Below are positions 1 to 24,696 of a DNA stretch of 64,000 nucleotides, in pieces; position 1 is the stretch's first letter, and every line of letters starts with the position of its first letter. The stretch is from an uncultured Elusimicrobia bacterium (lineage in GTDB: Bacteria; Elusimicrobiota; Elusimicrobia; UBA1565; UBA9628). A program made the translations under genes and the position numbers. A model generated the notes under the pieces. That model was not told the DNA's origin, made no database searches, and saw only the letters and a list, made by a program, of their open reading frames with translations. Location of the stretch: the NCBI GenBank assembly GCA_965283875.1, contig CBDIQC010000002.1:189839-253838 (forward strand), given 5' to 3'.

Positions 1-346
1 CGTTGGTGCCGGTGACGCCCACGACCTGCAGGCCCGCGGTCGGGCGGCCGAAATAGAGGTCCGACATGCGCGCCATGGCGTCGGCGACGTCGGCCACGCG
101 CACCCAGGTCCCGGAGACCACGGCGGGCGGCGGCGGCGCGTCGAGCTCGCTGACGACGGCCACGGCGCCGCGCTCGAGCGCCTCGCGCGCGTGGCGGTTG
201 CCGTCGGTCTTGGAGCCGGGCAGCGCGAAGAACAGGTCCCCGGGCTCCACGCGGCGCGAGTCGTGGCGCAGGCCGCGCACGGGCACGTCCACCGGCCCGC
301 GCGCCTCCCCGGAAGCTCCCGCGCGCAGGAGCTCCGCCAGCGTCAT
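1..346 (-). CDS. murE: MurE (UDP-MurNAc-L-Ala-D-Glu:2,6-diaminopimelate ligase), N-terminal ~115 codons; the gene runs off the window start
   Basis: My own minus-strand translation from the ATG at 346 gives MTLAELLRAG...GLRHDSRRVEPGDLFFALPGSKTDGNRHAREALERGA...VGVTGTN, a Mur ligase N-domain and the start of the P-loop. The start forms an ATGA overlap with the ftsI stop. The order ftsI-murE is the canonical dcw order. Confidence 0.85.
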   Translation of the reverse strand, partial: MTLAELLRAGASGEARGPVDVPVRGLRHDSRRVEPGDLFFALPGSKTDGNRHAREALERGAVAVVSELDAPPPPAVVSGTWVRVADVADAMARMSDLYFGRPTAGLQVVGVTGTN

Positions 347-2049
347 CGCGTCGCCCGTCGGACCGTCAGCAGCGCGGGCGCGGCCGCCACCGGGCGCGGC
401 GCGGGGGCGAGGCTTCCCCTCTTGAGCGCGGGGTCGTCGGGCCGGTCGGGCGCCACCGCGTCCATGGTCAGCAGGCGGCGGCCGATCTTGGCGAAGACGG
501 GAGCGGCGACGAGGCCGCCGTAGTAGGAGCCCTTGGGCTCATCGACGATGACGAGGATGGTCCAGCGCGGCGCCGAGGCGGGCAGCCAGCCGGCGAAGGA
601 CGCGACGTAGGCCTTCTGGGAATATTTGCGGGTCAGCGGGTCGAGCTTGCGGGCCGTGCCGGTTTTGCCCGCGACGCGGTAGCCCGGGATGCGGGCCGTG
701 GCGCCGGTGCCCTTCTCCACGACGGCCTCGAGCATGCGCGAGACCTCCCCCACCGCGCGTTCGGAGGCGACGCGGCGCACCTTCTCGGGCTCGCGGCCGT
801 CGTCGAGCAGGCGCGGCTCGAAGAGCGTGCCGCCGTTGGCCAGGGCCGAGTAGGCGCCGAGCATCTGCAGCGGGCTGACCGACAGGCCGTAGCCGTAGGA
901 CGACGCCGCCAAGCCGACCTTGCCGAGGTCGGAGAAAGGTTTGAGGTCGCCGGCGGTCTCGCCGGGCAGGGGCACGCCGGTGCGCAGGCCGAAGCCCAGC
1001 GCGCGCGCGGCGCGGAAGAAGCGCGCGGCGCCGACGCGTTCGACGACCTTGGCGATGCCGATGTTGGAGGACCGCTCCAGGATCTGCGCGAGGTTCATGT
1101 CGGCCTCGGGCTCGTGGTCGGTGATGGTCACGCCCGAGGCGATCTGCCACTTGCCGCCTTCGCCCGAGAAGGTCTCCGTCGGCGACACGAGGCGTTCCTC
1201 GATGGCGGCCAGCGCGGTGACGACCTTGAAGGTGGAGCCGGGCTCGTAGGCGTCTTGAACGAGCGGGTTCTTCAGCGTGTTGGGCGGCCAGGCGGCCATC
1301 GCCAGGATGTCGCCGGTGCGCGGGTCCTGCACCGCGGCGTAGCCCGACTTAAACGAATGCGCGGCGGCGCCTTCGGCCAGCGCCTCCTCGACGATGTATT
1401 GCACGTTGCGGTCAAGCGTGAGCTTCAGCGCCGCCGGCACCTCGCCGTCCTCGGCGATGTCGCGGTGGATGGCGCGGCCTTTGCCGTCGCGCACGAGCTC
1501 GACCTTGCGCGGCTTGCCGCGCAGGCGTTTCTCCTGCGACAGCTCCAGGCCCGACAGGCCTTTGCCCTCCGCTCCCACCAGGCCGAGCACGGTGCGGCCG
1601 AGCTCGGCGTTGGGATAGACGCGCTGGGACGACGGCGTCAGGCCCACGCATTCCACGCGCGCGGCCTGCACGGCCTGCGCCGTCGCGAAGTCCACGCCGG
1701 TTTTAAGCCAGCAGAAGCGGCCGGAGGCGCGCGCCTTGCGCTCGAGCTCGGCGGCGGGCATCTTGAGCACGGGGCCGAGCTTGCGGCCCAGCTCGGCGGC
1801 GTCCTTGAGCATCTTCTTGTCGAGGAACACGGACCAGGTCGGCACCGAACGCGCCAGGACGCGGCCTTTGCGGTCGGTGATGTCGGCGCGGGGAGCGGCC
1901 TCGGAGGCGGTGCGCGCGAACTCCCCCTCCGCGCGCTCCGACAGGGCCTCGTGGCGCAGCACCTGCAGGTGGGCCAGGCGCAAGGAGAGCGGCCCCAGCG
2001 GGGCCAACGACAAGACGGAGGCGACGGTCAGACGAAGGCCGAAGTCCAT
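343..2049 (-). CDS. ftsI: Peptidoglycan D,D-transpeptidase FtsI (PBP3 class)
   Basis: 568-aa ORF with an N-terminal membrane anchor and the transpeptidase motifs STFK, SSN and KTGT. It sits in dcw context. Confidence 0.9.
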   Translation of the reverse strand: MDFGLRLTVASVLSLAPLGPLSLRLAHLQVLRHEALSERAEGEFARTASEAAPRADITDRKGRVLARSVPTWSVFLDKKMLKDAAELGRKLGPVLKMPAAELERKARASGRFCWLKTGVDFATAQAVQAARVECVGLTPSSQRVYPNAELGRTVLGLVGAEGKGLSGLELSQEKRLRGKPRKVELVRDGKGRAIHRDIAEDGEVPAALKLTLDRNVQYIVEEALAEGAAAHSFKSGYAAVQDPRTGDILAMAAWPPNTLKNPLVQDAYEPGSTFKVVTALAAIEERLVSPTETFSGEGGKWQIASGVTITDHEPEADMNLAQILERSSNIGIAKVVERVGAARFFRAARALGFGLRTGVPLPGETAGDLKPFSDLGKVGLAASSYGYGLSVSPLQMLGAYSALANGGTLFEPRLLDDGREPEKVRRVASERAVGEVSRMLEAVVEKGTGATARIPGYRVAGKTGTARKLDPLTRKYSQKAYVASFAGWLPASAPRWTILVIVDEPKGSYYGGLVAAPVFAKIGRRLLTMDAVAPDRPDDPALKRGSLAPAPRPVAAAPALLTVRRATR

Positions 2050-2059
2050 GAAGAGGAGC

Positions 2060-2413
2060 TCAGCCCGAGAAGGCGGAGCGCACCGGCTCCGGCACCCGCG
2101 CCAAGAGGCGCGTCAGCCAGCCGATGGGGCCTTGCCGTCCGGGCAGGACGCGCAGCGAGTCGGGGTCCGCGGGAATCAGCCCGCGCCGTCCGGCCTCCGC
2201 GGCGAGCGCGCCGGGCGAGAGGCCTTGGTCGATTTGGAGACGCAGCGCCTCGACGCGGCCGCGCGAGCGCTGTATCTCCTTGCGGGCTTGGGCGACGCGG
2301 TAGCCCAGACGCGTGGCGGAGATATGCTGCCAGCACAGGAAGAGGACGAGCAGTCCCCCTACCCCGAACTTGGCCGCCGAGCCCGCGTCGAAGTTCATGC
2401 GCGACCGCATCAT
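2060..2413 (-). CDS. ftsL: FtsL-like cell division protein
   Basis: I chose the internal ATG at 2413 of ORF 2060..2614; the upstream part of that ORF only translates the hairpin repeats. The product starts MMRSRMNFDAGSAAKFGVGGLLVLFLCW (TM helix) and continues with a coiled-coil segment. It lies directly upstream of ftsI. Confidence 0.7.
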   Translation of the reverse strand: MMRSRMNFDAGSAAKFGVGGLLVLFLCWQHISATRLGYRVAQARKEIQRSRGRVEALRLQIDQGLSPGALAAEAGRRGLIPADPDSLRVLPGRQGPIGWLTRLLARVPEPVRSAFSG

Positions 2414-2443
2414 ACCAAATGCCCGCTCCTTACCGGAAAGTGT

Positions 2444-2769
2444 GGCGGGTCCCCCGCCGAGAGGGGCCCGCCAGTGCGTCAACCGATGGCGGGCCCTCCG
2501 CCGAGAGAGGGCCCGCCAAACCGTCTGAATCGAATGGCGGGTCCCCCGCCGAGAGGGGCCCGCCAAACCGTCTGAATCGAGGCGGCCCCCTCCGCCGAGA
2601 GAGGGGACCGCCAAACCGTCCGAACCGAGGCGACTCCCTCCGCCGAGAGAGGGAGCCGCCCAAACTTTTCGCGCCTCACGTCACGTCAAATCTAAGGCGG
2701 GTCCCCCCCGCCGAGAGGGGGGCCCGCCAGAGCGAGGCGTCCCCCCTCCGCCGAGAGAGGGAGGACGCC
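2444..2769 (-). repeat. Tandem array of 7 GC-rich hairpins with a conserved loop and covarying stems (REP-like or structured RNA array), located inside the dcw operon
   Basis: Units lie at 2444-2472, 2488-2517, 2536-2564, 2581-2612, 2629-2660, 2696-2728 and 2736-2769. The loop (T)CCGCCGAGAG(A) is invariant. Stems are 9-12 bp of the form GGCG...CGCC with paired substitutions. Units 2-5 are joined by the linker AAACCGTCTGAATCGA. Strand is assigned from the G.U wobble bias. Confidence 0.85.
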
Positions 2770-2778
2770 CAAATGGTC

Positions 2779-2967
2779 CTAGGGCCTCGGCGCCGCCTTG
2801 CCGCGCAGGAACACGCGCCGCCACACGTAGCCCGCCGCGGACGTCTTGCCCGCCGGCGCCACGTCGGTGGCGTGACGGCGGTCGCTGAGGAAGCCCACGG
2901 TGGTGTCGAGTTTCGTCACCGCCGCGAGGCCCGTGCTGGAGCCGACCAGGAATCCCAGGTTTTTCAT
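2779..2967 (-). CDS. Hypothetical 62-aa protein between rsmH and the hairpin array
   Basis: The ATG at 2967 is preceded by AAGGGGGG about 9 nt upstream, directly after the rsmH stop. Third-codon-position GC is high throughout. Product: MKNLGFLVGSSTGLAAVTKLDTTVGFLSDRRHATDV... I recognise no family. Confidence 0.45.
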   Translation of the reverse strand: MKNLGFLVGSSTGLAAVTKLDTTVGFLSDRRHATDVAPAGKTSAAGYVWRRVFLRGKAAPRP

Positions 2968-2981
2968 GGTAGATGTCCCCC

Positions 2982-3878
2982 TTAGCGTTTCTTTTCCACG
3001 ACTCGGAGCTTGGCGCTGCGCGCGCGCGGGTTGCGGCGGGCCTCGTCCTCGGAGCAGGCGACGGCGCCCTTGTCCACGGCCGTGCACGAACCCTGCGCGA
3101 CGAACGACGCGAAAACGTTCTTGACGATGCGGTCTTCCAAGGAGTGGAACGTGATGACGGCCAGGCGCCCGCCGTTCTGCAGGTAGGGCAGCACGGCCTC
3201 CAGGCCGCGCGACAGGACCTCGAGCTCGCGGTTGACCGCGATGCGCAGGGCCTGGAAGGTGCGCGTCGCGGGGTGTTTGTCCACGCGGGGCAGCACGGCG
3301 GCCACGGCCTCGGCCAGATCGACGGTGGAGGTGAAGGGGCGGCGGTCGCGGCGCGCGACGATGGCTCGGGCCACGCGCTCGGCCTCGGGCTCCTCGCCGA
3401 ACTCGGCGAGCAGCAAGGTGATCTGCTCGACGGGCCACTTGTTGACGATGGCCTCGGCGGTGAGCGTGTTATCGGGGCTCATGCGCATGTCGAGCGGCCC
3501 CTCCTTCATAAATGAGAACCCGCGGGCGGGTTTGTCTAACTGGAGCGATGACACGCCGATGTCGAAGAGGGCCCCGGACAGCGGGAAGAAACCTTCGGCT
3601 TCCAGGGCGGCGCCCAGGTCGCGGAAGTTGGCGCGGCGCAGGCGGGCGCGGTCCCCGAAGGGCGCGAGCTTCACGGAGGCCTCGGCGAGCGCCTCGGGAT
3701 CCTGGTCGAGACCCAGCACGCGCGCCTTCGGCAGCTTCCCTAATAACGCCGCCGTGTGCCCGCCGAGCCCGACCGTGGCGTCGAGATAGAGGCCGGCGGG
3801 GTCGCACGCGAGGCGCTCCAGGGTTTCCCCCAGGAGCACGGGCGCGTGCGTCCAGCGGCTCTCGTCGGTCAAGATCAT
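2982..3878 (-). CDS. rsmH: 16S rRNA (cytosine1402-N4)-methyltransferase RsmH (MraW)
   Basis: 298 aa starting HAPVLLGETLE...DATVGLGGHT, with RIAVNRELE. Its start forms an ATGA overlap with the mraZ stop. Confidence 0.95.
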   Translation of the reverse strand: MILTDESRWTHAPVLLGETLERLACDPAGLYLDATVGLGGHTAALLGKLPKARVLGLDQDPEALAEASVKLAPFGDRARLRRANFRDLGAALEAEGFFPLSGALFDIGVSSLQLDKPARGFSFMKEGPLDMRMSPDNTLTAEAIVNKWPVEQITLLLAEFGEEPEAERVARAIVARRDRRPFTSTVDLAEAVAAVLPRVDKHPATRTFQALRIAVNRELEVLSRGLEAVLPYLQNGGRLAVITFHSLEDRIVKNVFASFVAQGSCTAVDKGAVACSEDEARRNPRARSAKLRVVEKKR

Positions 3879-4324
3879 ATCTCCAGGTTCTTCCCGATCG
3901 CCTTATACGCCGGCGCGACCTTCGCCTTCTCGTAGGCCGCCCAGCGCTTCACGTCCCAGACCTCGGCGCGTTTGCCCGCGCCCTGCACCAGCACCGCGCC
4001 GCCCAGACCCGCGTGTTCCTTCAGGTACTGCGGCACCAGCACGCGGCCCTGCGCATCGACTTCCACTTCCACGGCTTCCGAGAAAAACTTGCGCTTGAAC
4101 GCCCGCTCCTGCTCCTTGTCGGCCATGCTGAAGGCGCGCAGGTCGTCGCCCAGCAGCTTCTCCCACTGCGACGGCAAGAACAGGTACAGGCAGCCTTCCA
4201 TGCCGCTCGTCAGGAAGAACGACGAGCCTTTTTCCTTCGCGAGCGCCTCGCGATACTTCGGCGGCACGGCCAAGCGGTTCTTGGGATCGAGCGAGTACTC
4301 GTAACGGCCGATGAGCAGAGACAT
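3875..4324 (-). CDS. mraZ: Transcriptional regulator MraZ
   Basis: 149 aa starting MSLLIGRYEYSLDPKNRLAVPPKYRE, with a duplicated SpoVT/AbrB-like layout. It is the first gene of the dcw cluster. Confidence 0.95.
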   Translation of the reverse strand: MSLLIGRYEYSLDPKNRLAVPPKYREALAKEKGSSFFLTSGMEGCLYLFLPSQWEKLLGDDLRAFSMADKEQERAFKRKFFSEAVEVEVDAQGRVLVPQYLKEHAGLGGAVLVQGAGKRAEVWDVKRWAAYEKAKVAPAYKAIGKNLEI

Positions 4325-4327
4325 TAT

Positions 4328-4375
4328 TCCCCACTCCCAACCACTCGCTTGTTATTCATCCCCACTTTTCCCCAC
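4328..4375 (-). promoter_or_regulatory. Putative MraZ operator: four helically phased GTGG(G/T) boxes
   Basis: On the minus strand GTGGGGA occurs at 4375-4369, 4365-4359 and 4334-4328, and GTGGTTG at 4344-4338. Box spacings are 10, 21 and 10 nt. All boxes lie between the predicted transcription start and the mraZ ATG. The proximal box may instead be the Shine-Dalgarno sequence. Confidence 0.55.
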
Positions 4376-4384
4376 CGGGTCACG

Positions 4385-4413
4385 AGTATAGGGGAACAGA
4401 CGAATCCTGTCAA
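4385..4413 (-). promoter_or_regulatory. Sigma-70-type promoter of the dcw operon (TTGACA-17-TATACT)
   Basis: On the minus strand TTGACA lies at 4413-4408 and TATACT at 4390-4385, with a 17-nt spacer. The -10 box is about 60 nt upstream of mraZ. Confidence 0.7.
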
Positions 4414-4449
4414 GGGGTGATTTTTCTCCGACGAGGAAACGACGCCGCG

Positions 4450-5634
4450 CTAGTTAGCGGGCAGGCGGGAGACGGACGAATTGCGCGACAGCTCGTAGCG
4501 CCACGCGTATTCGAGCGCCTTGAGGCGGTTGTAGGGCGCGCCGTACGCGCGGTACAGCGCCTCGTCGGCGCGTTGGCCGTCGCGCATGTTCGCGGAGAAC
4601 TTGTAGAACGACGAGCGGTACTGCGTGCGGATCATGAAGCGCACGATGCTGTAGGCCTGCGCGTACCACAGCCGCACGCGGTCGTCGTTCCAGCCCGACG
4701 TGGTGCCCACGGCCATGAAGCTGTCGATGGGGATGCCGCCCCCCCGCTCGAGGATCTCGAGGTTGTCGCGCAGCCAGTTGGGCGCGGCCAGGCCGCGCTC
4801 GACCTGCACGAGCGTCGCCATGCCTTCGGACAGCCACAGCGGGTTGGCGGTGCCGTCGAGGAAAAACGCGTCGAAGTAGATGTGCGTCAGCTCGTGCGCG
4901 AGGATGCCGGGCAGCTCCTCGCTTTCATAGACATAGACCTTGCGTTTGGGCACCGAGCTCGCGCCGCCCGACCACGACGGCCGCCCGGTGACCTGGCGGT
5001 AGGTCTGCTGGCTCTTGAAGAGGTAGATGGTGACGCGCTGGTCCTTGGCCCACGGCGAAAACGGCGCCAGGTCGAGCATGAGGTTGCCGTGCAGCGCCTC
5101 GATGAGCTCGACGAAGCGGTCCGACGCCGGGTACTGCTCGGAATAGACGTTGAAGTGGCGCGTCACGCGTTTGGCGAAGCCGGGCGGCAGCGGCGGGTCG
5201 GGGACCGCGGAGCGGTCCTCCTGCACGCGGCGGCGCGCGGCGGGCGGCGGCTGGCGCGGGACGCCGGCGGCCGGCGGCTGGGACGTGCCGGCGGGGCGCC
5301 GGTCGTTGGACGGCGCCGGCCCCACGGCCTCGGGCGCGGGCAACACGCGCGAGGCCAGGTCGTCGGGCACGGGCTGGGGCGCGCCGGCCGGCGGCAGCGG
5401 CGGCTGCGGGGCGACGACGGCGACGGGCACGGCGGCCGGGGCGTTGAGCGCGGAAAGCGCGGGCTCCTCGGGCGGCGTCGCGAGCGGGACGGCCCCCTTG
5501 ACGTAGGGGTTCACGATGGCCTGCATCTTGGCGGCCTCGCGCTCCTCCTCGCCCAGGTATTGATAGACCATGAGCCCCCAAAGGCTCACGACCAAGACCC
5601 AGATGAGGACGCGGAGTTTTAGTAGGGCGTCCAC
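4450..5634 (-). CDS. Membrane-anchored peptidase-MA-like zinc metalloprotease (HExxH)
   Basis: 394 aa with an N-terminal TM helix and a Pro-rich linker. The motif AHELTHIYFD followed by WLSEGMATL matches the HExxH...EG pattern of peptidase MA-like domains. Confidence 0.65.
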   Translation of the reverse strand: MDALLKLRVLIWVLVVSLWGLMVYQYLGEEEREAAKMQAIVNPYVKGAVPLATPPEEPALSALNAPAAVPVAVVAPQPPLPPAGAPQPVPDDLASRVLPAPEAVGPAPSNDRRPAGTSQPPAAGVPRQPPPAARRRVQEDRSAVPDPPLPPGFAKRVTRHFNVYSEQYPASDRFVELIEALHGNLMLDLAPFSPWAKDQRVTIYLFKSQQTYRQVTGRPSWSGGASSVPKRKVYVYESEELPGILAHELTHIYFDAFFLDGTANPLWLSEGMATLVQVERGLAAPNWLRDNLEILERGGGIPIDSFMAVGTTSGWNDDRVRLWYAQAYSIVRFMIRTQYRSSFYKFSANMRDGQRADEALYRAYGAPYNRLKALEYAWRYELSRNSSVSRLPAN

Positions 5635-5690
5635 GTTGGTAGTTTAACGGCCTTTCTCCCGGGCGTCCACCCCGGAATTGTGAAGCCCGT

Positions 5691-6203
5691 TCAGGCCCGG
5701 TTGGCGTCGCGCAGGCGCAGCGCGGCCTGCGCCAGGCCGTGCACGAACAGCGAGAAGATGATGATGAACGCCGCCTGGGACAGGGCCATGCCCAGGAACT
5801 CGCCCGTCAGCGGCTGGCGCAGCCAATACACGCCGATCATGGCGGCGGCGGCGGTGAGCGCGCAGAGCACGGTCTCGGTCAGGCCGAAGGTCAGGCCCGC
5901 GGCCGTGGGCGCCATGACGAAGACCAGCCACATCGGGTTCCAATACGGGAACAGCAGGTAGAAAAGCGGGATGGACCAGCCGAGGTTGAGCCAGACCTGG
6001 AGCTGGCGGAAACGCGCGGCCCAGCCCGCCCAGCGGTACTGGTTCTTGTTGAGCCACCAGTTGACGAGCATGTCGGCGGCGAGGATGGCCAGCGCGGCGT
6101 AGGCGGTAGCGCGCGACTCATCCTCCCACAGGCCGCGGAAATAGGCGGCCGACACGATGAGGATGAGGACGAAGGGCGTGAAGTAGCGGTTGAGCATCTG
6201 CAT
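5691..6203 (-). CDS. Hypothetical polytopic membrane protein
   Basis: 170 aa with about 5 hydrophobic helices and high GC3. I recognise no family. Confidence 0.55.
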   Translation of the reverse strand: MQMLNRYFTPFVLILIVSAAYFRGLWEDESRATAYAALAILAADMLVNWWLNKNQYRWAGWAARFRQLQVWLNLGWSIPLFYLLFPYWNPMWLVFVMAPTAAGLTFGLTETVLCALTAAAAMIGVYWLRQPLTGEFLGMALSQAAFIIIFSLFVHGLAQAALRLRDANRA

Positions 6204-6206
6204 GTT

Positions 6207-6866
6207 CTAGTCCTCCGCCCGATACAAGACGAGGTAGCGTTCCTGCGCCTCGCCCGGTCTGCGGTAGCCCACCGACTCTAGCAATCTCATCTTCGCCCCC
6301 GCCATAGCGGGTTCGGCCGGGACCGACTGGAAGGCCGCGAACAGGCCGTGCCGCTTGAGCAGCGGCCGCGCCAGCGCGAGCGCCTCGTCGAGCGGCGCGA
6401 GCGCGCGCTCCACCACGGCGTCGAAGCCCGATTCATACGCGTTGTGGGGGCGCCCGTCGCCCACGCGCCGCTGGATGACCCGCAGGCCCGGCAACGCGAG
6501 GCGGACGCTTTCCGCGTTGAGGAACTTGAACTTGCGCTCCACGGCCTCGATCAAGGTCACCTGCGCCTCGGGCCAGGCGATTTTCAGGCACACGCCGATG
6601 AACCCGCCGCCCGAGCCGAGGTCGCATACGCGCACGCCGTCGCGGCCTAAGGCCTTGCGCAGCGCCGCGGCGGCGAACACGCCGTCGGCCGCGTGTTTGA
6701 GCACGAGGTCTTCCCAGGCGTCGTCCGCCGTGAGATTCGTCGTCTTATTCTTGGCTGCGACCTCGCGCAGATAGGACTCGATATGCTCGAGCGCGGCCGC
6801 GTCGAGCGGCGCCCCCCACCCTTCGGCGGCGGCGGCGAGTCTCGACAGGGCGTTAGTCGCCGTCAT
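6207..6866 (-). CDS. rsmG: 16S rRNA (guanine527-N7)-methyltransferase RsmG (GidB)
   Basis: Contains KTTNLTA and VCDLGSGGGFIGV (SAM-binding motif). I chose the ATG at 6866, which forms an ATGA overlap with the mnmG stop. The alternative start is at 6887. Confidence 0.9.
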   Translation of the reverse strand: MTATNALSRLAAAAEGWGAPLDAAALEHIESYLREVAAKNKTTNLTADDAWEDLVLKHAADGVFAAAALRKALGRDGVRVCDLGSGGGFIGVCLKIAWPEAQVTLIEAVERKFKFLNAESVRLALPGLRVIQRRVGDGRPHNAYESGFDAVVERALAPLDEALALARPLLKRHGLFAAFQSVPAEPAMAGAKMRLLESVGYRRPGEAQERYLVLYRAED

Positions 6867-8578
6867 GAAACCCGCGTCAGGACCCATAAAGCTTGGACGT
6901 CGGCCGGCGTCAGCCCGGGGATACGCGCGGCCTGGCCGATGGTGCGCGGCTTGACGCGCGCGAGCTTCTGCAGCGCCTCGGCGCCCAGCGAGCCCGCGCG
7001 GCGGTAATCCACGCCGGCGGGCAGCTCGACGTGCTCCCAGCCGCGGCGCGACGCGGCGGCCTTCTCCTCGCGCGCGATGTAAAGCGCGTAGGTCGCGATG
7101 GTGTCGCGCTGGGCCAGGGCCTTCTCGAGGGTCCAGGGCCCGAGGTCCGCGGCCGCGGCGCCGGTCTCGACGGCGGCGGCGTAACGCTCGAAGGCGGGGC
7201 GCAGGTCCTGGGGCAGCAGGCCGAGCGCGAAGGCCGTGGGCATCAGGCGCAGGTCCGCGTTGTCGGCGCGCAGCGCGAGGCGGTTCTCGGCGCGCGCGGT
7301 GAACATGCGGTAGGGCTCATCGACGCCCTTGGTGACGAGGTCATCGACCATCACGCCGATGTAGGACTGCGCGCGGTCCCAGAGCACGGGCGCTTCCCCC
7401 GCGGCGGCGCGCGCGGCGTTGACGCCGGCGACCAGGCCCTGGGCCGCGGCTTCTTCATAACCCGTCGTGCCGTTGATCTGTCCGGCCAAAAACAGGCGCG
7501 GCACGGCCTTGGTCTCCAGCGCGGCCGTGAGCTGGTCGGGCGGGCAGAAATCGTATTCGATGGCGTAACCGAGTCTTAAAATAGCCGCCCGTTCGAGGCC
7601 GGGCACGGTGGAGACCATGGCCGCCTGAACGTCGTCGGGAAGACTGGTGGACAAGCCGTTGACGTAAACCTCGTGCGTGTCGCGCCCCTCCGGCTCGAGG
7701 AAGACGCGGTGGCTGTCCTTCTCCGGGAACCGCGACACCTTGTCCTCGACCGACGGGCAATAACGCGGTCCCGACGCCTTGATGGCGCCTGTGAACAGCG
7801 GCGAGCGGTCGAAGGCGGCGCGGATGACGTCGTGGGTCGCCGACGTCGTGCGCGTCAGCCAGCACGGCAGTTGCTCGACGGCCAGGCGCTCGGTGCGGAA
7901 AGACAACGCCTGCGGCGGTTGGTCGCCGTCTTGCCGCCGCGTCTTCGACCAATCGATGGTGCGCCCGTCGAGGCGAGGCGGCGTGCCGGTTTTCAGGCGG
8001 CCCACTTCCAGCCCCAGGCCGCGCAAAGACGCCGACAGGCCCAGCGAGGGCGCCTCGCCGACGCGTCCGGCCGGGTGCGACGAGAGGCCCGTGTGCGCGC
8101 GGCCGTTGAGGAAGGTTCCCGTGGTCAGCACGACGCAGCGCGCTTCCAGCCGCGTCCCGTCCTTGAGCTCGACGCCGCGCAGCCCGGTCGCGTCGGTCCA
8201 CACCGACGCGGCCTCCCCCTCCACGACGCTCAGTCCGGGCCGCGCGGTGACGGCCTCGCGCATGACGCGCCGATAGGCGTATTTATCGCACTGCACGCGC
8301 GGCGAACGCACGGCCTCGCCTTTGCCGAGGTTGAGGGTTTGGAACATCAGGCCGGACGCGTCGGCGCCTAAGGCCATCACGCCGCCGAGCGCGTCGAGCT
8401 CGCGCACGAGCTGGCCCTTGCCCGTGCCGCCGACGGCGGGGTTGCACGACATCGTGCCGATGGTGGCGGCGCTTTGGGTGAGCAAGGCGACGCGGCGGCC
8501 TAGACGGGCGGCCGCGTGGCTCGCTTCGATGCCCGCGTGCCCGCCGCCGACGACGACGACGTCGTAGGCCTCAGGCAT
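6863..8578 (-). CDS. mnmG: tRNA uridine 5-carboxymethylaminomethyl modification enzyme MnmG (GidA)
   Basis: 571 aa starting YDVVVVGGGHAGIEA (FAD fold), with the GidA-family signature GQINGTTGYEEAAAQG. Confidence 0.95.
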   Translation of the reverse strand: MPEAYDVVVVGGGHAGIEASHAAARLGRRVALLTQSAATIGTMSCNPAVGGTGKGQLVRELDALGGVMALGADASGLMFQTLNLGKGEAVRSPRVQCDKYAYRRVMREAVTARPGLSVVEGEAASVWTDATGLRGVELKDGTRLEARCVVLTTGTFLNGRAHTGLSSHPAGRVGEAPSLGLSASLRGLGLEVGRLKTGTPPRLDGRTIDWSKTRRQDGDQPPQALSFRTERLAVEQLPCWLTRTTSATHDVIRAAFDRSPLFTGAIKASGPRYCPSVEDKVSRFPEKDSHRVFLEPEGRDTHEVYVNGLSTSLPDDVQAAMVSTVPGLERAAILRLGYAIEYDFCPPDQLTAALETKAVPRLFLAGQINGTTGYEEAAAQGLVAGVNAARAAAGEAPVLWDRAQSYIGVMVDDLVTKGVDEPYRMFTARAENRLALRADNADLRLMPTAFALGLLPQDLRPAFERYAAAVETGAAAADLGPWTLEKALAQRDTIATYALYIAREEKAAASRRGWEHVELPAGVDYRRAGSLGAEALQKLARVKPRTIGQAARIPGLTPADVQALWVLTRVS

Positions 8579-9326
8579 ACATCAGGACTTTGAGGACTTC
8601 CAGAGGCAGCCACTTGAGCAGGAAGGCGGCGCCCACGAAGATGTTCTGCGCGAGCAACGCGAAGAAAACGGCGGCCAGCGCGCGCGCCGCGCCGGCGGCC
8701 TCGGTGCGTTTGAACAGGCGCGCGGCCGCGCCGAGCACCCACAGCAGCACGATGACCATCAGGGTCTTGTAGGCGGCGAGGCTGCCCGTCGGGATGATGA
8801 GCAGCTCCACGCCCAGCGACAGCAAGGACACGCCGTTGAGCCCGAGCACGACGGCCGCGATCAGCCGCCAGTGCGCGCCCTCGATGAGCCGGCCGTACCA
8901 CAACGTCGGCGCCAGCCACGCGGCCAGCAGCGCCGACGCCGCGGCCAGCGGCAGGGCCTTGCCCACGTAGGCGAAGGAGATCAGCAGCGGCGCGGCCGAC
9001 CAGGCGACCCCGGTGACGAGTTTGAAGGCGAGCCGGCCCGTGCCCAGCCAGCGCAGCGCGATGCCGACGAAGCCCACGAGCACGGCGGCCAGCACGGGCT
9101 GCCAGAACAACACGCGCAGCCAGAACAGGGGCGGGCGCGAGGGCAGCGCCGCCATCGCGGGCTCGGGGAAGCCGGCGGGCTTGAGCAAAGTGAACAGCAT
9201 CGAGGCGGCGACCCACAGCGCCCACAACGTCAAGGCGGCGCGAAACGCCTCGGGCTTCTTCACCTCGACGGCGGCGAGGTCGGGCTTGAGGGCGCACAGG
9301 TAGGCGAGTCGCAGGGCGGCTTTCAC
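8571..9326 (-). CDS. Hypothetical polytopic membrane protein (Yip1-like topology)
   Basis: A GTG at 9326 forms a GTGA overlap with the stop of the upstream MFS gene. About 6 TM helices follow. The upstream part of track ORF 8571..10316 is an out-of-frame shadow of the MFS gene. Confidence 0.55.
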   Translation of the reverse strand: MKAALRLAYLCALKPDLAAVEVKKPEAFRAALTLWALWVAASMLFTLLKPAGFPEPAMAALPSRPPLFWLRVLFWQPVLAAVLVGFVGIALRWLGTGRLAFKLVTGVAWSAAPLLISFAYVGKALPLAAASALLAAWLAPTLWYGRLIEGAHWRLIAAVVLGLNGVSLLSLGVELLIIPTGSLAAYKTLMVIVLLWVLGAAARLFKRTEAAGAARALAAVFFALLAQNIFVGAAFLLKWLPLEVLKVLMYA

Positions 9327-10888
9327 GCGGGGGCACCTCCGAGGGCGGCGACGGCGTCGGCGTCGTAGCGGCGGCGGGCGGCCAGGCAGAACCAGCCGCC
9401 CAGCCCGAGCGCGACGCAGGCGAGCAGCATGGCGTTGGCCAGGCCGAAGCGGTCCGAGCCCAGGCCGATCAAGGTCGGCGAGACCGCGTCGCCGAGCGCG
9501 TGGATGATGAAGATGTTGGCGGCGAAGGCCATGGAGCGCGTCTCCAGGCGCGTGACCGACACGATGGCCGCGTTGAGCGGCCCCATGTTGAGGAACAGCA
9601 AGGTCTCGGCGAGGAACAACGCGGCGATGGAGGCCGCGAGGCTCGGCGCCATGATGGCGGCCATCGCGCACGGCATGCCCGCGATGAGCCCGAAGCCCGA
9701 GATGAGCAGGTAGGCGTGCGGCCGCGTCTTGATGAGCCGGTCGGCCAGCCACCCGCCGAGCAGGCTGCCGGCCAGGCCCGCGGCCACGGTCACGCCGCCG
9801 AAGTACAGTCCGGCCTGACCCACGCTCAGGCCCCAGGTCCGGTGGAAAAACGTGGGCATCCACACCGCGAACCCGCCGAGCGCGAACGTCATGGCCGCGC
9901 CCGCGAAGGTGATGAGCCGGAACGTGGGCACCGACCACACCGTGCGGTAGCCTTCCCAGACGGGTTTGGTCGGGCGCGGCTCGTCCTTGGGCAAGGTCAT
10001 CGCCACCGCGGCGAGCAGCAGGCCGGGCAGGCCCACGAGGAAAAAGGCGTTGCGCCAGCCGAAATGCTGGCCGATGTAGCCGCCGCCGGCGTAACCCAGC
10101 GCCGAGCCCACGGGGATGGCCATCGAGAACACGGCCAAGGCCCAGCCGCGCCGCTCGGGCGGGAAACGCTCCGCGACGAACGAGGGAGAGATGGCGCCGT
10201 AGCAGGCTTCCCCCACCCCGACCATCGCGCGCGTGAAGAACAGGGACGAGAAGGAGCGCGTCAGGCCCGCGGCCGCGGTGGCCACGCTCCACAACGCGAT
10301 GCCGCCGGCGATCCACGGGCGGCGCCCGCGCGAATCAGCGAGCCAGGCGATGGGCGGCGCGGCGAGCATATAGACGACCATGAAGGCGGAGGCGAGGCTG
10401 CCGGCCTGCGCGTCGGTGAGCGCGAGCTCGCCCGAGATCAGCGGCAGCAGCGCGTAGGCCACCTGCCGGTCCACGTAGTTGAGGACGTTGACCGCCGTCA
10501 GCAGGAGGAGGCAGGCCGACGGGGTCCAGCGGGTCACGGCGTCCAGACGGCGTCGCCGGGTGCGCACGGCGTCGGCCACCTCGACGAAGGCGGTCTCGCC
10601 GGGCAGCGCGCTCTGCACGGAGCGTTTGCCCACGCGGATGCGCTCGGCGCGCTGGGTGAGGTCGGTGACCTTGCCCTTCACGCGCAGGGAATCTCCCGCC
10701 GAGAGCGATTCCTCGAGGCGCAAGGTCATCTCGCGCGTCTTGGCGTCGTAGGCCCGCACCTTGCCGACGAGCGGAGCGCCGACGAGCTGCTCCTCGGGCG
10801 AGATGTCCCACACCGGCGTGCGGGTCGGCGTCGCGGGGGCCTTGGCCTTCGCCGCGGGTCGGGCCTTCTTCTTCGTCTTTTTCTTCAT
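9323..10888 (-). CDS. MFS transporter with a ~115-aa N-terminal soluble extension
   Basis: 521 aa. The MFS core starts near LLLLTAVNVLNYVDRQ and has 12 TM helices. The N-terminus is Lys-rich and then carries a beta-rich segment, GKVRAYDAKTREMTLRLEESLSAGDSLRVKGK... Confidence 0.8.
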   Translation of the reverse strand: MKKKTKKKARPAAKAKAPATPTRTPVWDISPEEQLVGAPLVGKVRAYDAKTREMTLRLEESLSAGDSLRVKGKVTDLTQRAERIRVGKRSVQSALPGETAFVEVADAVRTRRRRLDAVTRWTPSACLLLLTAVNVLNYVDRQVAYALLPLISGELALTDAQAGSLASAFMVVYMLAAPPIAWLADSRGRRPWIAGGIALWSVATAAAGLTRSFSSLFFTRAMVGVGEACYGAISPSFVAERFPPERRGWALAVFSMAIPVGSALGYAGGGYIGQHFGWRNAFFLVGLPGLLLAAVAMTLPKDEPRPTKPVWEGYRTVWSVPTFRLITFAGAAMTFALGGFAVWMPTFFHRTWGLSVGQAGLYFGGVTVAAGLAGSLLGGWLADRLIKTRPHAYLLISGFGLIAGMPCAMAAIMAPSLAASIAALFLAETLLFLNMGPLNAAIVSVTRLETRSMAFAANIFIIHALGDAVSPTLIGLGSDRFGLANAMLLACVALGLGGWFCLAARRRYDADAVAALGGAPA

Positions 10889-10903
10889 GGCATCACCAGT
10901 CTG

Positions 10904-12202
10904 TCATTTCCCGAGGCAAAAACGCGAGAAAACGGCGTCCATACGTCGTCGCCGATGTCGCTCGCCCAGGGTCGCCCAGGCGGGCCAGCGCGCCGAGCAG
11001 CTTAGATCGTCGCGGTTGCCGTAGGCGCTGGCGTGGTCAGGATGTTGACCGCGACGGCGTCATCAGGTCGCAAGCGCTCGGCCCAGCCGCACACGGTGGC
11101 CGGCGCGCACGCGTGACGGGGCATCTCGAAGTCCAGCGGGCCGGCGGCGGCGGCGACCGCCGCGGCCAATTCGTTCAAGCCGTTCCCGGTGAGGGCTGAT
11201 ACTGATACGCCGCCGGCAGGCGGCGCGTCGCATAAATCGCTCTTATTCCAAACCGAAACGACCGCGCCACCAGGCCGTAATTTCCGCGCGCGGTCGAAAA
11301 GCTCAGCCGCTTGCTCAATAGGCCCTGTGCAGTCGGACACCAGCACCGCCACATCACAAGCCGCCAGCGCCTCCTCGGCGCGCCGCACGCCTTCGGCTTC
11401 CTCGGGCGTCGCCGCCTCTCTAAGGCCCGCCGTATCCACGAGCACCGCCGGCAGCCCGGCCAGCTCGACGTTTTCCTCGAGCGTATCGCGCGTGGTCCCG
11501 GGCCGCGGCGAAACGATGGCGCGGTCTTTACCTAGCAGAGCGTTGAGCAGGCTGGATTTCCCGGCGTTCGGCGGCCCGAACAACCCGACGCGCGCGCCGT
11601 CGCGCAGCAGCCGTCCCCGCTCCTGCCCCGCGAGCAGGAGTTTCACCGAGGCGCGGGCGTCCTCGAGCGTCGCCGCGGCCGTCCCCACGGGAATCGGCGC
11701 GAGCTCCTCCTCCGGATGGTCCAGCCGCGCCTCGACCTCGGCCAGCAGGTCGAACAGCGGCGCGCGCACGGCTTCGACGCGGCGCGACAGCCCGCGCTGC
11801 AGCCGCGCGAGCGCCGCGCGCGCGTATGTGAGTGCTGGCTGTAGTCAAGTCCGCGACGGCCTCGGCCTGGGCCAGGTCGAGCTTGTCGTTGAGGAAGGCG
11901 CGGCTCGGTGAACTCGCCGGGCTCGGCCAGGCAGCAGCCAGCGCCGCGCAGGCGTCGAGCAGGGCGCGAAGGACGAGCGGCGAGCCGTGGCAGGTCAGCT
12001 CGAGGGTGTCCTCGCCGGTGGCGCTGGCGGGCGCCAGCGGAGAAGACGGCGACCACTTCATCGAGGACGCGGCCTTCGTGGACGGCGGCGCGTCGAAACT
12101 AAACGCTTCTGTGTCACGCAGCATGCGCTTGCGAGCGACGCGGCGACGGCGCGGCTGCTCGCTGAAGCGCAAGAGATGAGCAGAATGGAATGCCTCAGCC
12201 AC
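10904..12202 (-). pseudogene. mnmE: tRNA modification GTPase MnmE (TrmE), reading frame broken at least 6 times as sequenced
   Basis: MnmE motifs are spread over three frames: LLRFSE, VLDEVVAVFS, TGEDTLELTCHG, AEPGEFTE, RAFLNDKLDLAQAEAVADL, GPPNAGKSSLLNAL and DTAGLRE. The canonical C-terminus MDAVFSRFCLGK* ends at 10904 in yet another frame. Confidence 0.8.
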
Positions 12203-13169
12203 GCTGGTATACCAGGGTCAGCCTCTGCACTAGGCCGGATGACGAGCTTGCGCCACGGGCCTTCCCCTCCGAGGACGTCGTCACGTCGGGATGCGAGGAC
12301 AGGCTGCGGTGGATGAGGCGGCGCATGGACGCGTCCATCGGCTCCATGCGGAAGGGGCGGCCGGTGGCCTTCACCGACTCGACGGCGTTGCGCGCCGCGT
12401 CGAGCACGGAGCCTTCGCGTTTCTCCCAGTAGGACAAGGCGTCCACCTGGACCGCGATGGGGGTGGCCCCGCCGCGCGCCATGAGCAAGGTCGTGATGAA
12501 CTGCAGGGACTCGAGCACGCGGCCGTCGCGGCCCACGAGCAGCGACGCGTCCTGCGACTCGACGGACGCCTTCACGCGTCGAGAGCTTGGCGTCCCGCGT
12601 CGGCGAGTTGACGGTCGGGCGCCGACGATTGAACGTGATCATGCCGCGCAGCAGGTCGGTGTCGATGACCTGCGCCTTGGCGCAGGCCTCGGCGACCTTC
12701 GGCGGCGGTCAGGGGCTTGGACGCCTCCTCGCGGACGTCGGCGCGGGGCCTGTCGCGACGCAGGTGTCCAGCGCCGGGCGCGCGGGCGCCGGGGCGGGCA
12801 TGCGCGCGGCTCGCCAGCAGGGCTACTCAGGCGGCGGCTCCTCGCGTCGCGGCGCGGAAGCGTCGCGGCGGGGCTCCGGCGCGCGGGGCGGCTGGTTGCG
12901 GCGCTATGACGTGTTCGGCCCGCGCCCGGGTCGCGGCGCTCGGGGCGCGGCGCGGGCACGGGTTTGACCGGGAGCGGCGGCGCGGAGCCGGGGCCCCAGC
13001 GCTTCTCGGTGATGCGCACGCGCGCGGGCTTGGCGCCGAAGCCGAGCACGCCGGCGACGGCTTCCTGGATGACGTCCACTTCGACCTGGTCGCGGCGCAG
13101 GCCCGAGCTCTTGAGGGCGGCATCGACGGCTTCGGCGACGGTTTTACCTTCGATTTCGATGGGGTCCAT
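12195..13169 (-). pseudogene. jag: Jag/KhpB RNA-binding protein (Jag_N, KH, R3H), frame broken as sequenced
   Basis: The N-terminus is MDPIEIEGKTVAEAVDAALKSSGL (Jag_N). LLVGRDGRVLESLQFI is the KH part and MRRLIHRSLSSHPDVTTSSEG the R3H part. EGPWRKLVIRP continues in another frame after a G4 run at 12264-12267. Confidence 0.75.
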
Positions 13170-13191
13170 GGTTTGTCTCCTTGGGGGCGGG

Positions 13192-14739
13192 CTAGGCCTC
13201 GAGGCGGTCCTTCAAGCCGAGCTGAAGGACGGTGCTGACGAGAGAGTTCGTCAGCCAGTAGAGGACGAGTCCCGACGGGAAGTTGAGGAACATGAAGGTG
13301 AAGATGACCGGCATGAACATCATGATCTGCTGCTGCGTGGGGTCGGCCGACGGCGGGTTGAGCTTGCTCTGCAGCCACATCAAGCCGCCCATGACGATGG
13401 GCAGCACGTAATACGGGTCCTTCGCGGAGAGGTCCACGACCCAGAACATCCAAGGGGCGCCGTGCAGCTCCCAGGAGTTGCGCAGGACGTTGAACAACGC
13501 GACGAAGATGGGCATCTGCAGGAGCATCGGCAGGCAGCCGCCGAGCGGGTTGGCGCCGGTCTTCTTATACAGCGCCATCATCTCCTGGTTGAGGCGCTGC
13601 GGGTCCTCTTTGTATTTCGCCTGCAGCTTCGCCATCTCGGGCGACAGCTTCTTCATGGCGGCCGCGGCGCGCAGGCTCTTCCAGGTCAGCGGGAACAACA
13701 CGACCTGCAGCGCCAAGGTCAACACGACGATGGCCCAGCCCCAGTTGCCGATGCGCGACTGCAGCCACCACAAGGCGTTGAGCATCGGGCGGCCGATCTG
13801 CCAGAAGTAGCCGAAGTCCACGGCGCGCTCCAGGCCGATGCCGTAAGACGACAGGCCGGTCTGGCCCTTGGGGCCGAGGTAATAGGGAAGCTCCCAGGTG
13901 AAGGTCCCGCCCGGAGGCAAGGTCACGGGTTTGGCGGTGAGCGTCACCGTGTTGTGCCCGGTCGCGGCCACGGGCGAGAAATGCTCCCACGACGGGACGA
14001 CGGCGGCGAGGAAGTAGCGGTTATCGACGGCGACCCAGCGGTACGGCGTCGGGTAGGTGCCGTCTTTGAGCGTCTCGATGCTGCCGCGCAGGCCTTCGGC
14101 GCCGGGCTTCAGGCCGATGGCGCGCATAACGTCCTTGTTTTCCTTGAGCTCGGTGGCGATGGTGCCCAGGCCCGGGCCGATGACGAGCTGCCAGGCGCCG
14201 ACGTCGAGCGGCTTGCGCGTGGAGTTGGTCGCGCTCACGCGCAGGCGCGAGAGCACCTGGCCCTGGCCGGGCAGGTACTGCTTGACGACCTTCAGGCCGT
14301 CGGCGCGTTCGGCCGACAACGCGTTGGCGTCCTTGAGCTTCGGGTCGCGCGCGAAGGACAGGTCGGGCATGGTGGAGAACATGCCGTTCTCCTGGTTGGC
14401 GACGAGCTCGACGACGCCGAGCGGCTCGGGCTGCTTGTAGCTCACGAGCGCGCCGCCGCGCGGGCTGACGAGCGCGTCCACCTCGCCCAGGCGAAGAGGA
14501 AGGGGTTCCCCGGCGGCGGCCGCGGGAGCGGCCTTGGCGGCCGGCGTCGCGGGTGACGTCGCGTCCTTCATGGAGGGAGCGGCGGCCGGTCCGAGCGCGG
14601 ATTTGCCGGCGCTGTTGGCCGCGGCCGCGGCGACGGCGGGTTTGGCCGGCTTGGGATTAAGCTTCGGGTCGATGAAGCCGAACCAGCCCGCGTACACGGT
14701 GATGGACAACACGACGGCCAGCAGGAGGTTCTTATCCAT
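13192..14739 (-). CDS. yidC: Membrane protein insertase YidC
   Basis: 515 aa with an N-terminal TM helix, a large periplasmic domain and a C-terminal 5-TM core containing PLGGCLPMLLQMPIF. Confidence 0.95.
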   Translation of the reverse strand: MDKNLLLAVVLSITVYAGWFGFIDPKLNPKPAKPAVAAAAANSAGKSALGPAAAPSMKDATSPATPAAKAAPAAAAGEPLPLRLGEVDALVSPRGGALVSYKQPEPLGVVELVANQENGMFSTMPDLSFARDPKLKDANALSAERADGLKVVKQYLPGQGQVLSRLRVSATNSTRKPLDVGAWQLVIGPGLGTIATELKENKDVMRAIGLKPGAEGLRGSIETLKDGTYPTPYRWVAVDNRYFLAAVVPSWEHFSPVAATGHNTVTLTAKPVTLPPGGTFTWELPYYLGPKGQTGLSSYGIGLERAVDFGYFWQIGRPMLNALWWLQSRIGNWGWAIVVLTLALQVVLFPLTWKSLRAAAAMKKLSPEMAKLQAKYKEDPQRLNQEMMALYKKTGANPLGGCLPMLLQMPIFVALFNVLRNSWELHGAPWMFWVVDLSAKDPYYVLPIVMGGLMWLQSKLNPPSADPTQQQIMMFMPVIFTFMFLNFPSGLVLYWLTNSLVSTVLQLGLKDRLEA

Positions 14740-14953
14740 GGGTTTTGGGGACGGGGTCGTAACCGCCGTCGGTGAAAGGATGGCAGCGGGAGACGCGCCG
14801 CAGCGTGAGCCCGAGTCCGGCGAAGGCGCCGCGCGTCGCGACGGCTTCGCGCGCGTAGTCCCCGCAGCTCGGGTGGAAGCGGCAGGCGGGCGGAAGGAAC
14901 GGCCGCACGGCGGCCCGGTAGAGGTCCAGCACGGCCAAGAGGACGTTGGTCAT
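14732..14953 (-). CDS. yidD: Membrane protein insertion efficiency factor YidD
   Basis: The ATG at 14953 forms an ATGA overlap with the rnpA stop. Motifs: YRAAVRPFLPPACRFHPSCGDYA...RCHPF..GGYDPVP. Confidence 0.85.
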   Translation of the reverse strand: MTNVLLAVLDLYRAAVRPFLPPACRFHPSCGDYAREAVATRGAFAGLGLTLRRVSRCHPFTDGGYDPVPKTHG

Positions 14954-15300
14954 TTGCGCAGAAGCCCGGCCTTGCGGCACAGCTCGAGGAGGTCGCTCTC
15001 GGCGTCGGCATGCCGTTTCCACGGACAGCCGGCGCGCGGATAGGCGACGAGCTCGAGCCCGGCCGCGAGCTCGTGGCGGTGGAGGCGGAAAGCCTCGCGC
15101 AGCAACCGCTTGAGGCGGTTGCGACGCACCGCGTTCCCGACCTTGGAGCTTACCGACAGGCCGAGGCGCGGCTCCGCGACGGGGTCGCCCCCGCGGTGCC
15201 AGAGGATGAGCGCGCTTCCGACGGTTTTGCGTCCATTCTCATAGACGCGCCGGAAGTCGCGCCCATCCTTCAGGCGCGCGCGGGGCCCGAAGCCGGGCAC
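14950..15300 (-). CDS. rnpA: Ribonuclease P protein component
   Basis: 116 aa containing RLKDGRDFRRVY and VGNAVRRNRLKRLLREA. It lies downstream of rpmH. Confidence 0.9.
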   Translation of the reverse strand: MPGFGPRARLKDGRDFRRVYENGRKTVGSALILWHRGGDPVAEPRLGLSVSSKVGNAVRRNRLKRLLREAFRLHRHELAAGLELVAYPRAGCPWKRHADAESDLLELCRKAGLLRK

Positions 15301-15473: not shown

Positions 15474-17439
<1,966 letters not shown>

Positions 17440-17483
17440 AACTGGTAGCTCAGCATGCTCCGCGCCCTCAGGTCGTCAGTCTG

Positions 17484-23651: not shown

Positions 23652-23736
23652 TTAACGAGAGGGACAGGTGTCCCGCGCTGTCAGGTGTTGTTAACAACAC
23701 CGGGCTTGTGAATGACGTGGATAACCCGCCGCGCCG

Positions 23737-24222: not shown

Positions 24223-24240
24223 GTCGCTTCTCCGTCGTGA

Positions 24241-24666: not shown

Positions 24667-24696
24667 GTTTATGGTGCTCTGCGCGCTCTAATTGGA

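Follow-up and report, generated by a model that had tools for sequence, protein, structure and literature searches.

A tandem hairpin array with an invariant loop between rsmH and ftsL in the dcw operon of uncultured Elusimicrobiota

The array and its locus

The present analysis concerns a tandem array of seven hairpins, all carrying one loop on stems of differing sequence, within the division and cell wall (dcw) operon of an uncultured Elusimicrobia bacterium, as found in a 64-kb stretch of DNA that we refer to throughout as the window. The operon is read from the minus strand in the order mraZ-rsmH-62-aa open reading frame (ORF)-array-ftsL-ftsI, with all genes on the same strand, and the array occupies the one long untranslated spacer of the predicted mraZ-rsmH-small ORF-ftsL-ftsI-mur transcript. 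An initial annotation of the window had reported seven hairpins in a gap of 365 nt; the gap measures 365 nt from the small-ORF stop codon (2779-2781) to the ftsL ATG (2411-2413) and is filled by these seven, all of which were recovered by folding and by model searches (7/7), and an inverted-repeat finder returned five of them, with 11-13 nt per arm, 91-100% complementarity and 8-9 nt separating the arms. In the RNA sense each unit is a GC-rich stem of 10-16 bp capped by the loop octamer UCUCGGCG, and stem stability is very high, at -21 to -36 kcal/mol per unit. The units are given below in the order of the RNA, with their scores under a covariance model, R1, that was built from 33 distinct units and searched with filters off.

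2736..2769, minus strand: unit 7, first in the RNA; GGCGUCCUCCCUC-UCUCGGCG-GAGGGGGGACGCC, one U.G pair; R1 41.4 bits
2696..2728, minus strand: unit 6; GGCGGGCCCCCC-UCUCGGCG-GGGGGG(A)CCCGCC, bulged A (T2702 on the plus strand); R1 37.3 bits
2629..2660, minus strand: unit 5; GGCGGCUCCCUC-UCUCGGCG-GAGGGAGUCGCC, G.U pair 2656:2633; R1 41.7 bits
2581..2612, minus strand: unit 4; GGCGGUCCCCUC-UCUCGGCG-GAGGGGGCCGCC, U.G pair 2607:2586; R1 45.8 bits
2536..2564, minus strand: unit 3; GGCGGGCCCC-UCUCGGCG-GGGG(A)CCCGCC, bulged A (T2542 on the plus strand); R1 40.8 bits
2488..2517, minus strand: unit 2; GGCGGGCCCUC-UCUCGGCG-GAGGGCCCGCC, perfect stem with arms 100% complementary; R1 51.1 bits
2444..2472, minus strand: unit 1, last in the RNA; bulged A (T2450 on the plus strand); R1 36.3 bits
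2473..2628, minus strand: short linkers of units 1-5, 13-16 nt each; in the RNA sense ...CCGCC-(A/U)UCGAUUCAGACGGUUU-GGCGG...

Unit 7 begins 8-9 nt past the small-ORF stop codon and unit 1 ends about 30 nt ahead of the ftsL start codon; unit periods are 44, 48, 46, 48, 68 and 40 nt, with a long spacer of 34 nt after unit 6. Two forms of unit may be distinguished, CCCUC-UCUCGGCG-GAGGG in units 2, 4, 5 and 7 and CCCC-UCUCGGCG-GGGG with a bulged A in the 3′ arm in units 1, 3 and 6, and the sequence of unit 3 is that of unit 1. Each stem foot is preceded by a U-rich run and followed by YCGAU, both of which recur in related loci. The repeated linker of the initial annotation, AAACCGTCTGAATCGA, occurs exactly at 2519-2534 and 2566-2581, with a third copy carrying two changes. 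Its description of the stems also stood, including the three positions 2586:2607, 2633:2656 and 2743:2762 that read as C.A or A.C mismatches on the plus strand but as G.U wobbles on the minus strand, except in holding these to be the only departures from Watson-Crick pairing, as the bulged T2450, T2542 and T2702 of units 1, 3 and 6 had not been listed.

The promoter and genes of the operon, again in the order of the RNA, are as follows.

4385..4413, minus strand: sigma-70-like promoter 5′ of mraZ, TTGACA-17-TATACT, 11/12 consensus matches
3875..4324, minus strand: mraZ, PF02381 in orthologues
2982..3878, minus strand: rsmH (mraW), 16S rRNA m4C1402 methyltransferase, PF01795, 97% identical to P0001
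2779..2967, minus strand: conserved small ORF of 62 aa with the motifs DTTVGFLxDR and GYVWRRVF
2060..2413, minus strand: ftsL-like gene, 117 aa, one transmembrane helix and a coiled coil, first gene 3′ of the array
343..2049, minus strand: ftsI, penicillin-binding protein dimerisation domain and transpeptidase, by the Pfam families of orthologues

The ftsL-like call is based on position before ftsI and on a weak match to NF053549 FtsL_Actino (E 6.4e-7) that falls below the cut-off. By consensus scan the site upstream of mraZ is the sole promoter-like site within 2000-4800, and it is therefore the likely source of a transcript carrying the array. No sigma-70-like site was found in or beside the array in consensus scans, which other promoter types may escape, and no conserved U-tract terminator was found in or beside it. 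The possibility of an intrinsic terminator or attenuator was rejected, the single weak site (2712-2696, tail UUAGAUUUGA) not being kept in orthologues. Between the -10 of the mraZ promoter (4390-4385) and the mraZ start codon there are four GTGG(G/U)(G/U) boxes on the minus strand at 4329-4375 (4375-4370, 4365-4360, 4344-4339 and 4334-4329), arranged as two pairs with 10-nt spacing, which we take to resemble the MraZ operator known in other bacteria.

Covariation, loop invariance and strand

The array exceeds chance expectation by several measures. The 10-mer CCGCCGAGAG occurs eight times in the window against 0.86 expected, with none of 100 shuffles reaching 8, and seven of these copies are in the array, the eighth being a stemless copy in coding sequence at 10696. 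R1 scores on the seven units of the window were 36-51 bits (E 1e-5 to 4e-9), compared with a maximum of 26.6 bits on their antisense, 18.4 bits for the best match outside the array in the window, and 23.3 bits in a negative control of 564 kb of unrelated GC-rich contigs, each with at least three octamer copies. The gap also folds far better than shuffles on both strands, as expected of any palindrome array. The control loci came from a metagenome pattern of three TCTCGGCG octamers with variable gaps, which at least 120 loci match; there was no real hairpin array among the metagenome matches listed (0/120), this pattern being too permissive for GC-rich DNA.

In a loop-anchored alignment of the 33 distinct units the only invariant columns are the T, C, G, G, C and G of the loop. 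Standard pairs fill 91.4% of cells in these units versus 62.1% in shuffles, none of 500 shuffles reaching the observed value; changes on both sides are found in all of the pairs (12/12, 108 cells), and sliding the partner by 1-3 columns lowers pairing to only 50-61%. Between relatives stems are wholly replaced, for example GGCGGGCCC, GGCGAGCGUUU, GUCGGAUGGUC, GGCCUGGGGC and AGCGGGCACC, each with its complement. The invariant loop on covarying stems that the initial annotation described in the window extends to these relatives, with stems that fully covary and a core, UCGGCG, that is unchanged down to 64% RsmH identity. From these comparisons it is evident that selection keeps both the pairing, as seen in compensatory changes and wobbles confined to the sense strand, and the sequence of the loop.

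Among 39 distinct units from 11 loci there were 423 Watson-Crick pairs, 26 internal G.U pairs, 38 loop-closing U.G pairs and no A.C mismatches, so that the strand bias first noted on three pairs holds with more copies. Six single bulges were found in the 39 units, all in the 3′ arm, and when sense and antisense were compared the sense strand gave the more stable fold in 30 of 36 cases. Because G.U pairs occur without A.C mismatches and the sense strand is the more stable, the selected fold belongs to the operon sense strand, and RNA would be the simplest reading of such a fold.

Conservation among related loci

RsmH places the window in the uncultured Elusimicrobiota, and matches with a named source were all Elusimicrobia or Elusimicrobiota metagenome-assembled genomes (MAGs). 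The comparison set consisted of 11 related Elusimicrobiota loci with RsmH 64-97% identical. Every readable relative has rsmH, an ORF of 58-64 aa, a gap, ftsL and ftsI, and the gap is filled with sense-strand hairpins of the same kind, of which there are 2-7 per locus, with 5-7 usual, in one place and one orientation.

L001: 5 units; RsmH 97% identical
L002 (= L007): 6 units
L003: 6 units
L005: 5 units
L011: 5 units; stems wholly different, e.g. GUCGGAUGGUC/GACCAUCCGAC
L173: 2 units; loops ACUCGGCG
L174: at least 3 units, the contig ending; loops UUCUCGGCG and UUCGGCG
L175: 5 units
L177: array collapsed, with an NN gap in the assembly
L179: 5 units
L180: 7 units; 35-nt period

Units orthologous to the first unit of the window show compensatory changes in L001, L002, L003, L005 and L175. 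L180 had no part in the building of R1, yet all seven of its units were found (7/7) at 29-36 bits, with no such match elsewhere in the 13 kb of this locus. Copy number shifts between near-identical strains, from seven units in the window to five in L001 at 97% RsmH identity, and an identical RsmH protein is found with a gap of 121 nt in the collapsed L177 and of 219 nt in L179. Contigs end at the array in L004, L174, L176 and L178, and the collapse in L177 is marked by NN at 10179-10180. Such copy-number shifts and contig breaks are typical of tandem repeats, with the practical effect that, in short-read assemblies of these MAGs, the dcw operon is broken at the array. As far as sampled, the array is confined to one clade of uncultured Elusimicrobiota.

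Two observations in single relatives may be recorded here. In L003, and in this relative only, the long spacer of the array holds at 3304-3365 an insertion of two 31-nt palindromes of another kind, GGTTACGAGGGGGTCAGACCCCCTGGTAACC and a variant of it, and no other copy was found in the related loci compared. In L011 a run of about 12 G and then about 10 C directly follows the last hairpin (3580-3605, minus strand), which could represent another hairpin or an artefact of assembly.

The small ORF lies directly 5′ of the array in every related locus seen. Its protein motifs, DTTVGFLxDR and GYVWRRVF, are conserved across loci with diverged DNA, and the ORF is therefore a real gene, the protein being conserved where the DNA of the locus is not. 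It has no Pfam or NCBIfam match, and a profile search of 1.84 billion representative proteins returned only about 40 similar small proteins and a few repetitive false matches. The homologues (P0121-P0178) form a lineage-restricted family of 48-100 aa with invariant DTTV.F and YVW..F and a conserved Trp 10-13 residues from the C terminus. The first hairpin begins 6-11 nt past the small-ORF stop codon in 10 of 11 loci, so close that the foot of its stem would be reached by a ribosome terminating there.

Locus specificity

The covariance-model search proposed in the initial annotation found copies confined to the array and in operon orientation throughout the 64-kb window and about 156 kb of related loci (143 kb and 13 kb). 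All strong R1 matches in the related loci were inside the gap, and all of those in the window and 12 related loci were on the operon sense strand. A genome-wide scan used an 18-mer of the commoner unit form only, with one genome per species, and in 185,579 GTDB species genomes 11 stretches matched. Three were from Elusimicrobiota MAGs, all at the dcw locus (with four matches in one array, that of L007), and the other eight were single matches in unrelated phyla. A blastn search against plasmids and phages gave no match. The 16-mer core had 37 single matches in viral contigs, four with 7-8 bp of flanking complementarity and none with a full-length stem or an array; these were taken as due to chance. 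Isolated copies of CCCTCTCTCGGCGGAGGG, each a short hairpin, occur in unrelated bacteria (L015 4360-4377 and L008 4261-4284); they score 23-26 bits with R1, the L015 copy lies right after a stop codon, and they are probably due to chance. Within this sampling, then, the position before ftsL is fixed, copy number changes fast and the array is absent from other sites.

These searches bear on two explanations that treat the array as a DNA element. The first is that it belongs to an ordinary dispersed family of repetitive extragenic palindromes (REPs), bacterial interspersed mosaic elements (BIMEs) or miniature inverted-repeat transposable elements (MITEs) that happened to land in the dcw operon, an option which the initial annotation had listed. 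Imperfect palindromes of 29-36 nt in tandem in an intergenic gap would fit such a family, as would the frequency with which assemblies break at the array, but no copy was found elsewhere in the window, in the related loci or among the Elusimicrobiota matches of the 18-mer scan, none was in the opposite orientation, and position is conserved at 64-97% RsmH identity. We regard this explanation as extremely unlikely, and within the sequences covered it largely fails.

The second is that the sense strand forms single-stranded DNA (ssDNA) hairpins, on the lagging-strand template or the non-template strand of a transcription bubble, that serve a DNA transaction as a substrate like that of REPs and REP-associated tyrosine transposases (RAYTs), as a recombination site or as a replication pause. 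G.T wobbles are tolerated in DNA hairpins and fit the strand bias, copy number changes fast, and a gene neighbourhood of origin-proximal type, rnpA-yidC-jag-mnmE-gidA-gidB, lies directly upstream. As sampled, however, there is a single locus per genome and always in operon orientation, no GTAG/CGTC end tag is conserved, there was no plasmid or phage match, and the search for a RAYT-type gene that the initial annotation had proposed found housekeeping genes and no Y1_Tnp domain among 40 ORFs scanned with Pfam, a scan that covered 64 kb of the genome. A role as ssDNA thus seems very unlikely, if a little less so than a dispersed family.

Comparison with known elements

No named family was recognized in the initial annotation, and Rfam 15 at gathering thresholds gave no match anywhere in the window; literature searches for such a motif in Elusimicrobia or dcw operons found nothing relevant. 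The array appears to be an undescribed motif of a known general kind, that of tandem hairpin cis-regulatory or protein-binding RNA, and it may be compared with several systems.

Like the array, REP and BIME elements are imperfect palindromes of 20-40 nt, rich in GC and clustered between genes of an operon, and at the level of RNA both would probably obstruct exonucleases and set the relative expression of flanking genes. The malE-malF interval of E. coli is the classic case of a REP acting as an intercistronic stabilizer of mRNA. General features of REPs have been described (PMC3733652, PMC3337134): one end of the palindrome bears the tetranucleotide GTAG or CGTC (PMC3733652) and copies occur in both orientations, typically as inverted pairs (PMC3337134). 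REPs are high-copy, dispersed, end-tagged and RAYT-dependent, whereas the array has a single locus, one orientation and a vertically inherited position, lacks such a tag and conserves its loop rather than its end. Tested as a REP, BIME or REPIN (REP doublet forming a hairpin), the array was rejected on each of three features. In place of high dispersed copy number there are seven units at one locus of the window and, in the 18-mer scan, one contig, that of the dcw operon, per Elusimicrobiota MAG. In place of a GTAG/CGTC end tag the stem feet are GGCGG/CCGCC preceded by UUU; CGTC is present in linkers of the closest relatives only and is absent from those of L011, L179 and L180. In place of both orientations, all units share that of the operon.

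The best sub-threshold Rfam match was to the mraW RNA (RF01746), at 24 bits versus a gathering threshold of 50, and was rejected as an artefact of composition and palindromes. The alignment treats the adjacent units 2 and 1 as one long hairpin with many non-standard pairs, and this fold is rejected because covariation supports separate local hairpins. The mraW motif, a candidate cis-regulatory RNA, consists of one long hairpin and is found ahead of mraW/rsmH in Actinomycetales (PMC2864571). The association with the dcw operon is shared, but the array lies downstream of rsmH and a further ORF, and in Elusimicrobiota rather than Actinomycetales. The pan motif, usually two tandem hairpins with conserved bulged A residues and a probable protein-binding RNA (Weinberg et al. 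2010, PMC2864571), is similar in having simple tandem hairpins with few invariant nucleotides upstream of a specific gene class; the array differs in having up to seven units, in conserving the loop, and in sequence, taxon and gene context.

Protein-binding hairpins with a loop motif are also known from the CsrB/RsmZ sponges for CsrA and the coat-protein operators of phages MS2 and PP7. In these, as in the array, a short invariant loop is carried on a sequence-free stem, and several copies allow multivalent binding. CsrB and RsmZ are, however, separate small RNA (sRNA) genes with GGA loops, and MS2 has one operator hairpin, located at a start codon, whereas the array has the loop UCUCGGCG and would lie inside an operon mRNA. 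A CsrA-type GGA loop was rejected: some units have a GGA, but only where the 3′ arm begins, and all seven units of L180 lack it.

Other candidates were also considered and rejected. A clustered regularly interspaced short palindromic repeat (CRISPR) array would have unique spacers of about 25-40 nt, versus linkers here of 3-16 nt that are themselves conserved, and the repeat stems differ between units. A protein-coding tandem repeat does not agree with periods that are not triplets and with ortholog stem lengths that differ by non-multiples of three. A double-stranded DNA operator, for example for MraZ, was rejected because GGCGG spacing varies, because covariation and G.U asymmetry are those expected of a folded single strand, and also because GTGGGG boxes of MraZ type sit as expected upstream of mraZ. 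By eye, an anticodon-like loop, a T-loop, a UNCG tetraloop and pairing with the ftsL ribosome-binding site were each examined, as was the CsrA-type GGA, and none fits all units.

Interpretation

We consider it probable, though with some reserve, that this is a vertically inherited, locus-specific structured-RNA array that displays its loop to a trans-acting factor and controls ftsL-ftsI in cis, a reading drawn from sequence comparison. The array would be transcribed from the mraZ promoter within the operon mRNA, and the repeated loop would offer a multivalent docking site to a loop-specific trans-acting factor, most likely a protein. Occupancy of the loops, together with the very stable stems, could then determine how much ftsL-ftsI-mur message stays intact and translatable compared with mraZ-rsmH, and the control point may be processing, decay or read-through.

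The main rival is a passive intercistronic barrier that acts by hairpin stability alone, in the manner of REPs in E. coli operons and with no factor reading the loop, whether as a block to 3′-5′ exonucleases, a shield for the 5′ end of a processed ftsL message, an exclusion of Rho from a long untranslated stretch or a stall to the ribosome terminating on the small ORF. Stems of -21 to -36 kcal/mol per unit, the absence of U-tract terminators, linkers that are the only A/U-containing single-stranded stretches and would suit endonuclease entry, and a first stem placed 6-11 nt past the small-ORF stop, near the terminating ribosome, in 10/11 loci are all consistent with such a barrier. It needs no particular loop, however, yet six loop positions are invariant down to 64% RsmH identity while the stems vary, and one or two hairpins would be enough where 5-7 are usually kept. 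A loop-reading factor is argued for because a passive barrier would not fix six loop positions while all stem positions turn over, and we judge the barrier alone to be unlikely.

An alternative explanation for the many copies is that the array is an embedded sponge or sRNA, excised from the operon transcript to accumulate as a stable RNA of many hairpins and titrate a loop-binding regulator as CsrB and RsmZ do, in which case the target would be the regulon of that regulator and not ftsL. Protein-sponge RNAs have this architecture, in which one loop is repeated many times on stable stems, a copy number of 2-7 among close relatives is as for a dosage element, and the conserved linker motifs could be cleavage sites. 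Against this are the lack of promoter or terminator consensus of its own, a loop without the GGA of CsrA targets, and a strictly fixed position before ftsL that argues for a role in cis. The sponge is distinctly unlikely in our assessment, and both it and the ssDNA role are less likely than the passive barrier.

Several points weigh against control in cis through a loop-reading factor. Stems as stable as these might suffice as a passive barrier without any factor. The strand bias alone cannot separate RNA from sense-strand ssDNA, because G.T wobble is tolerated in DNA, and the shuffle statistics overstate independence because they draw on paralogous units of one array and on loci that are related to each other. 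We infer read-through only from gene spacing and the absent promoter and terminator consensus. Incompleteness of MAGs limits the claim that there is no other copy, and extra sites of low copy are possible. No known domain is present in the small-ORF protein, and prediction of its structure gave nothing informative (predicted local distance difference test 49).

The small ORF is the only lineage-matched candidate partner, by co-occurrence only. One speculative extension is that small ORF and array together form an unrecognised post-transcriptional control module of the divisome, in which the small protein, or another factor such as the nearby KhpB/Jag, would bind the UCGGCG loops cooperatively and gate whether the ftsL-ftsI message is made, kept or translated, with copy number tuning the set-point; we offer this as a doubtful proposal, unlikely on present evidence. 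The start of septation is limited by the levels of FtsL and FtsI, and to our knowledge control of the dcw operon is mostly transcriptional, through MraZ, or exerted on ftsZ; we know of almost no experimental genetics in the Elusimicrobiota. If the favoured reading is true, divisome stoichiometry would be subject to a new kind of checkpoint, exerted by a conserved multi-copy RNA element with sequence-specific loops directly ahead of ftsL. As a comparative case the array is unusually clean, combining strongly covarying stems and an unchanging loop with wobbles confined to one strand and strict locus specificity, and a binding partner would be directly testable.

Neighbouring genes and other observations

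The dcw operon directly follows a gene block of origin-proximal type (window 4450-15300, minus strand) containing rnpA, yidC, jag/khpB (KH and R3H), mnmE, a major facilitator superfamily transporter, gidA, gidB, a 170-aa membrane protein and a Peptidase_MA_2 protein, and the order of this block is kept in the relatives L002, L173, L177 and L180. A low-GC island at 23700-27000 (0.57-0.60 versus 0.69 overall) was probably acquired horizontally and contains four minus-strand ORFs without a Pfam match (24241-24666, 24697-25437, 25442-26155 and 26186-26986). Finally, in the mechanical ORF at 15474-19451 on the plus strand, of 1325 aa, acetyl-CoA synthetase domains are confined to the first 620 or so residues, and because the remainder overlaps ORFs with high GC at third codon positions (18581-18979 and 18976-19773), it is probably not one gene, or a stop was missed.

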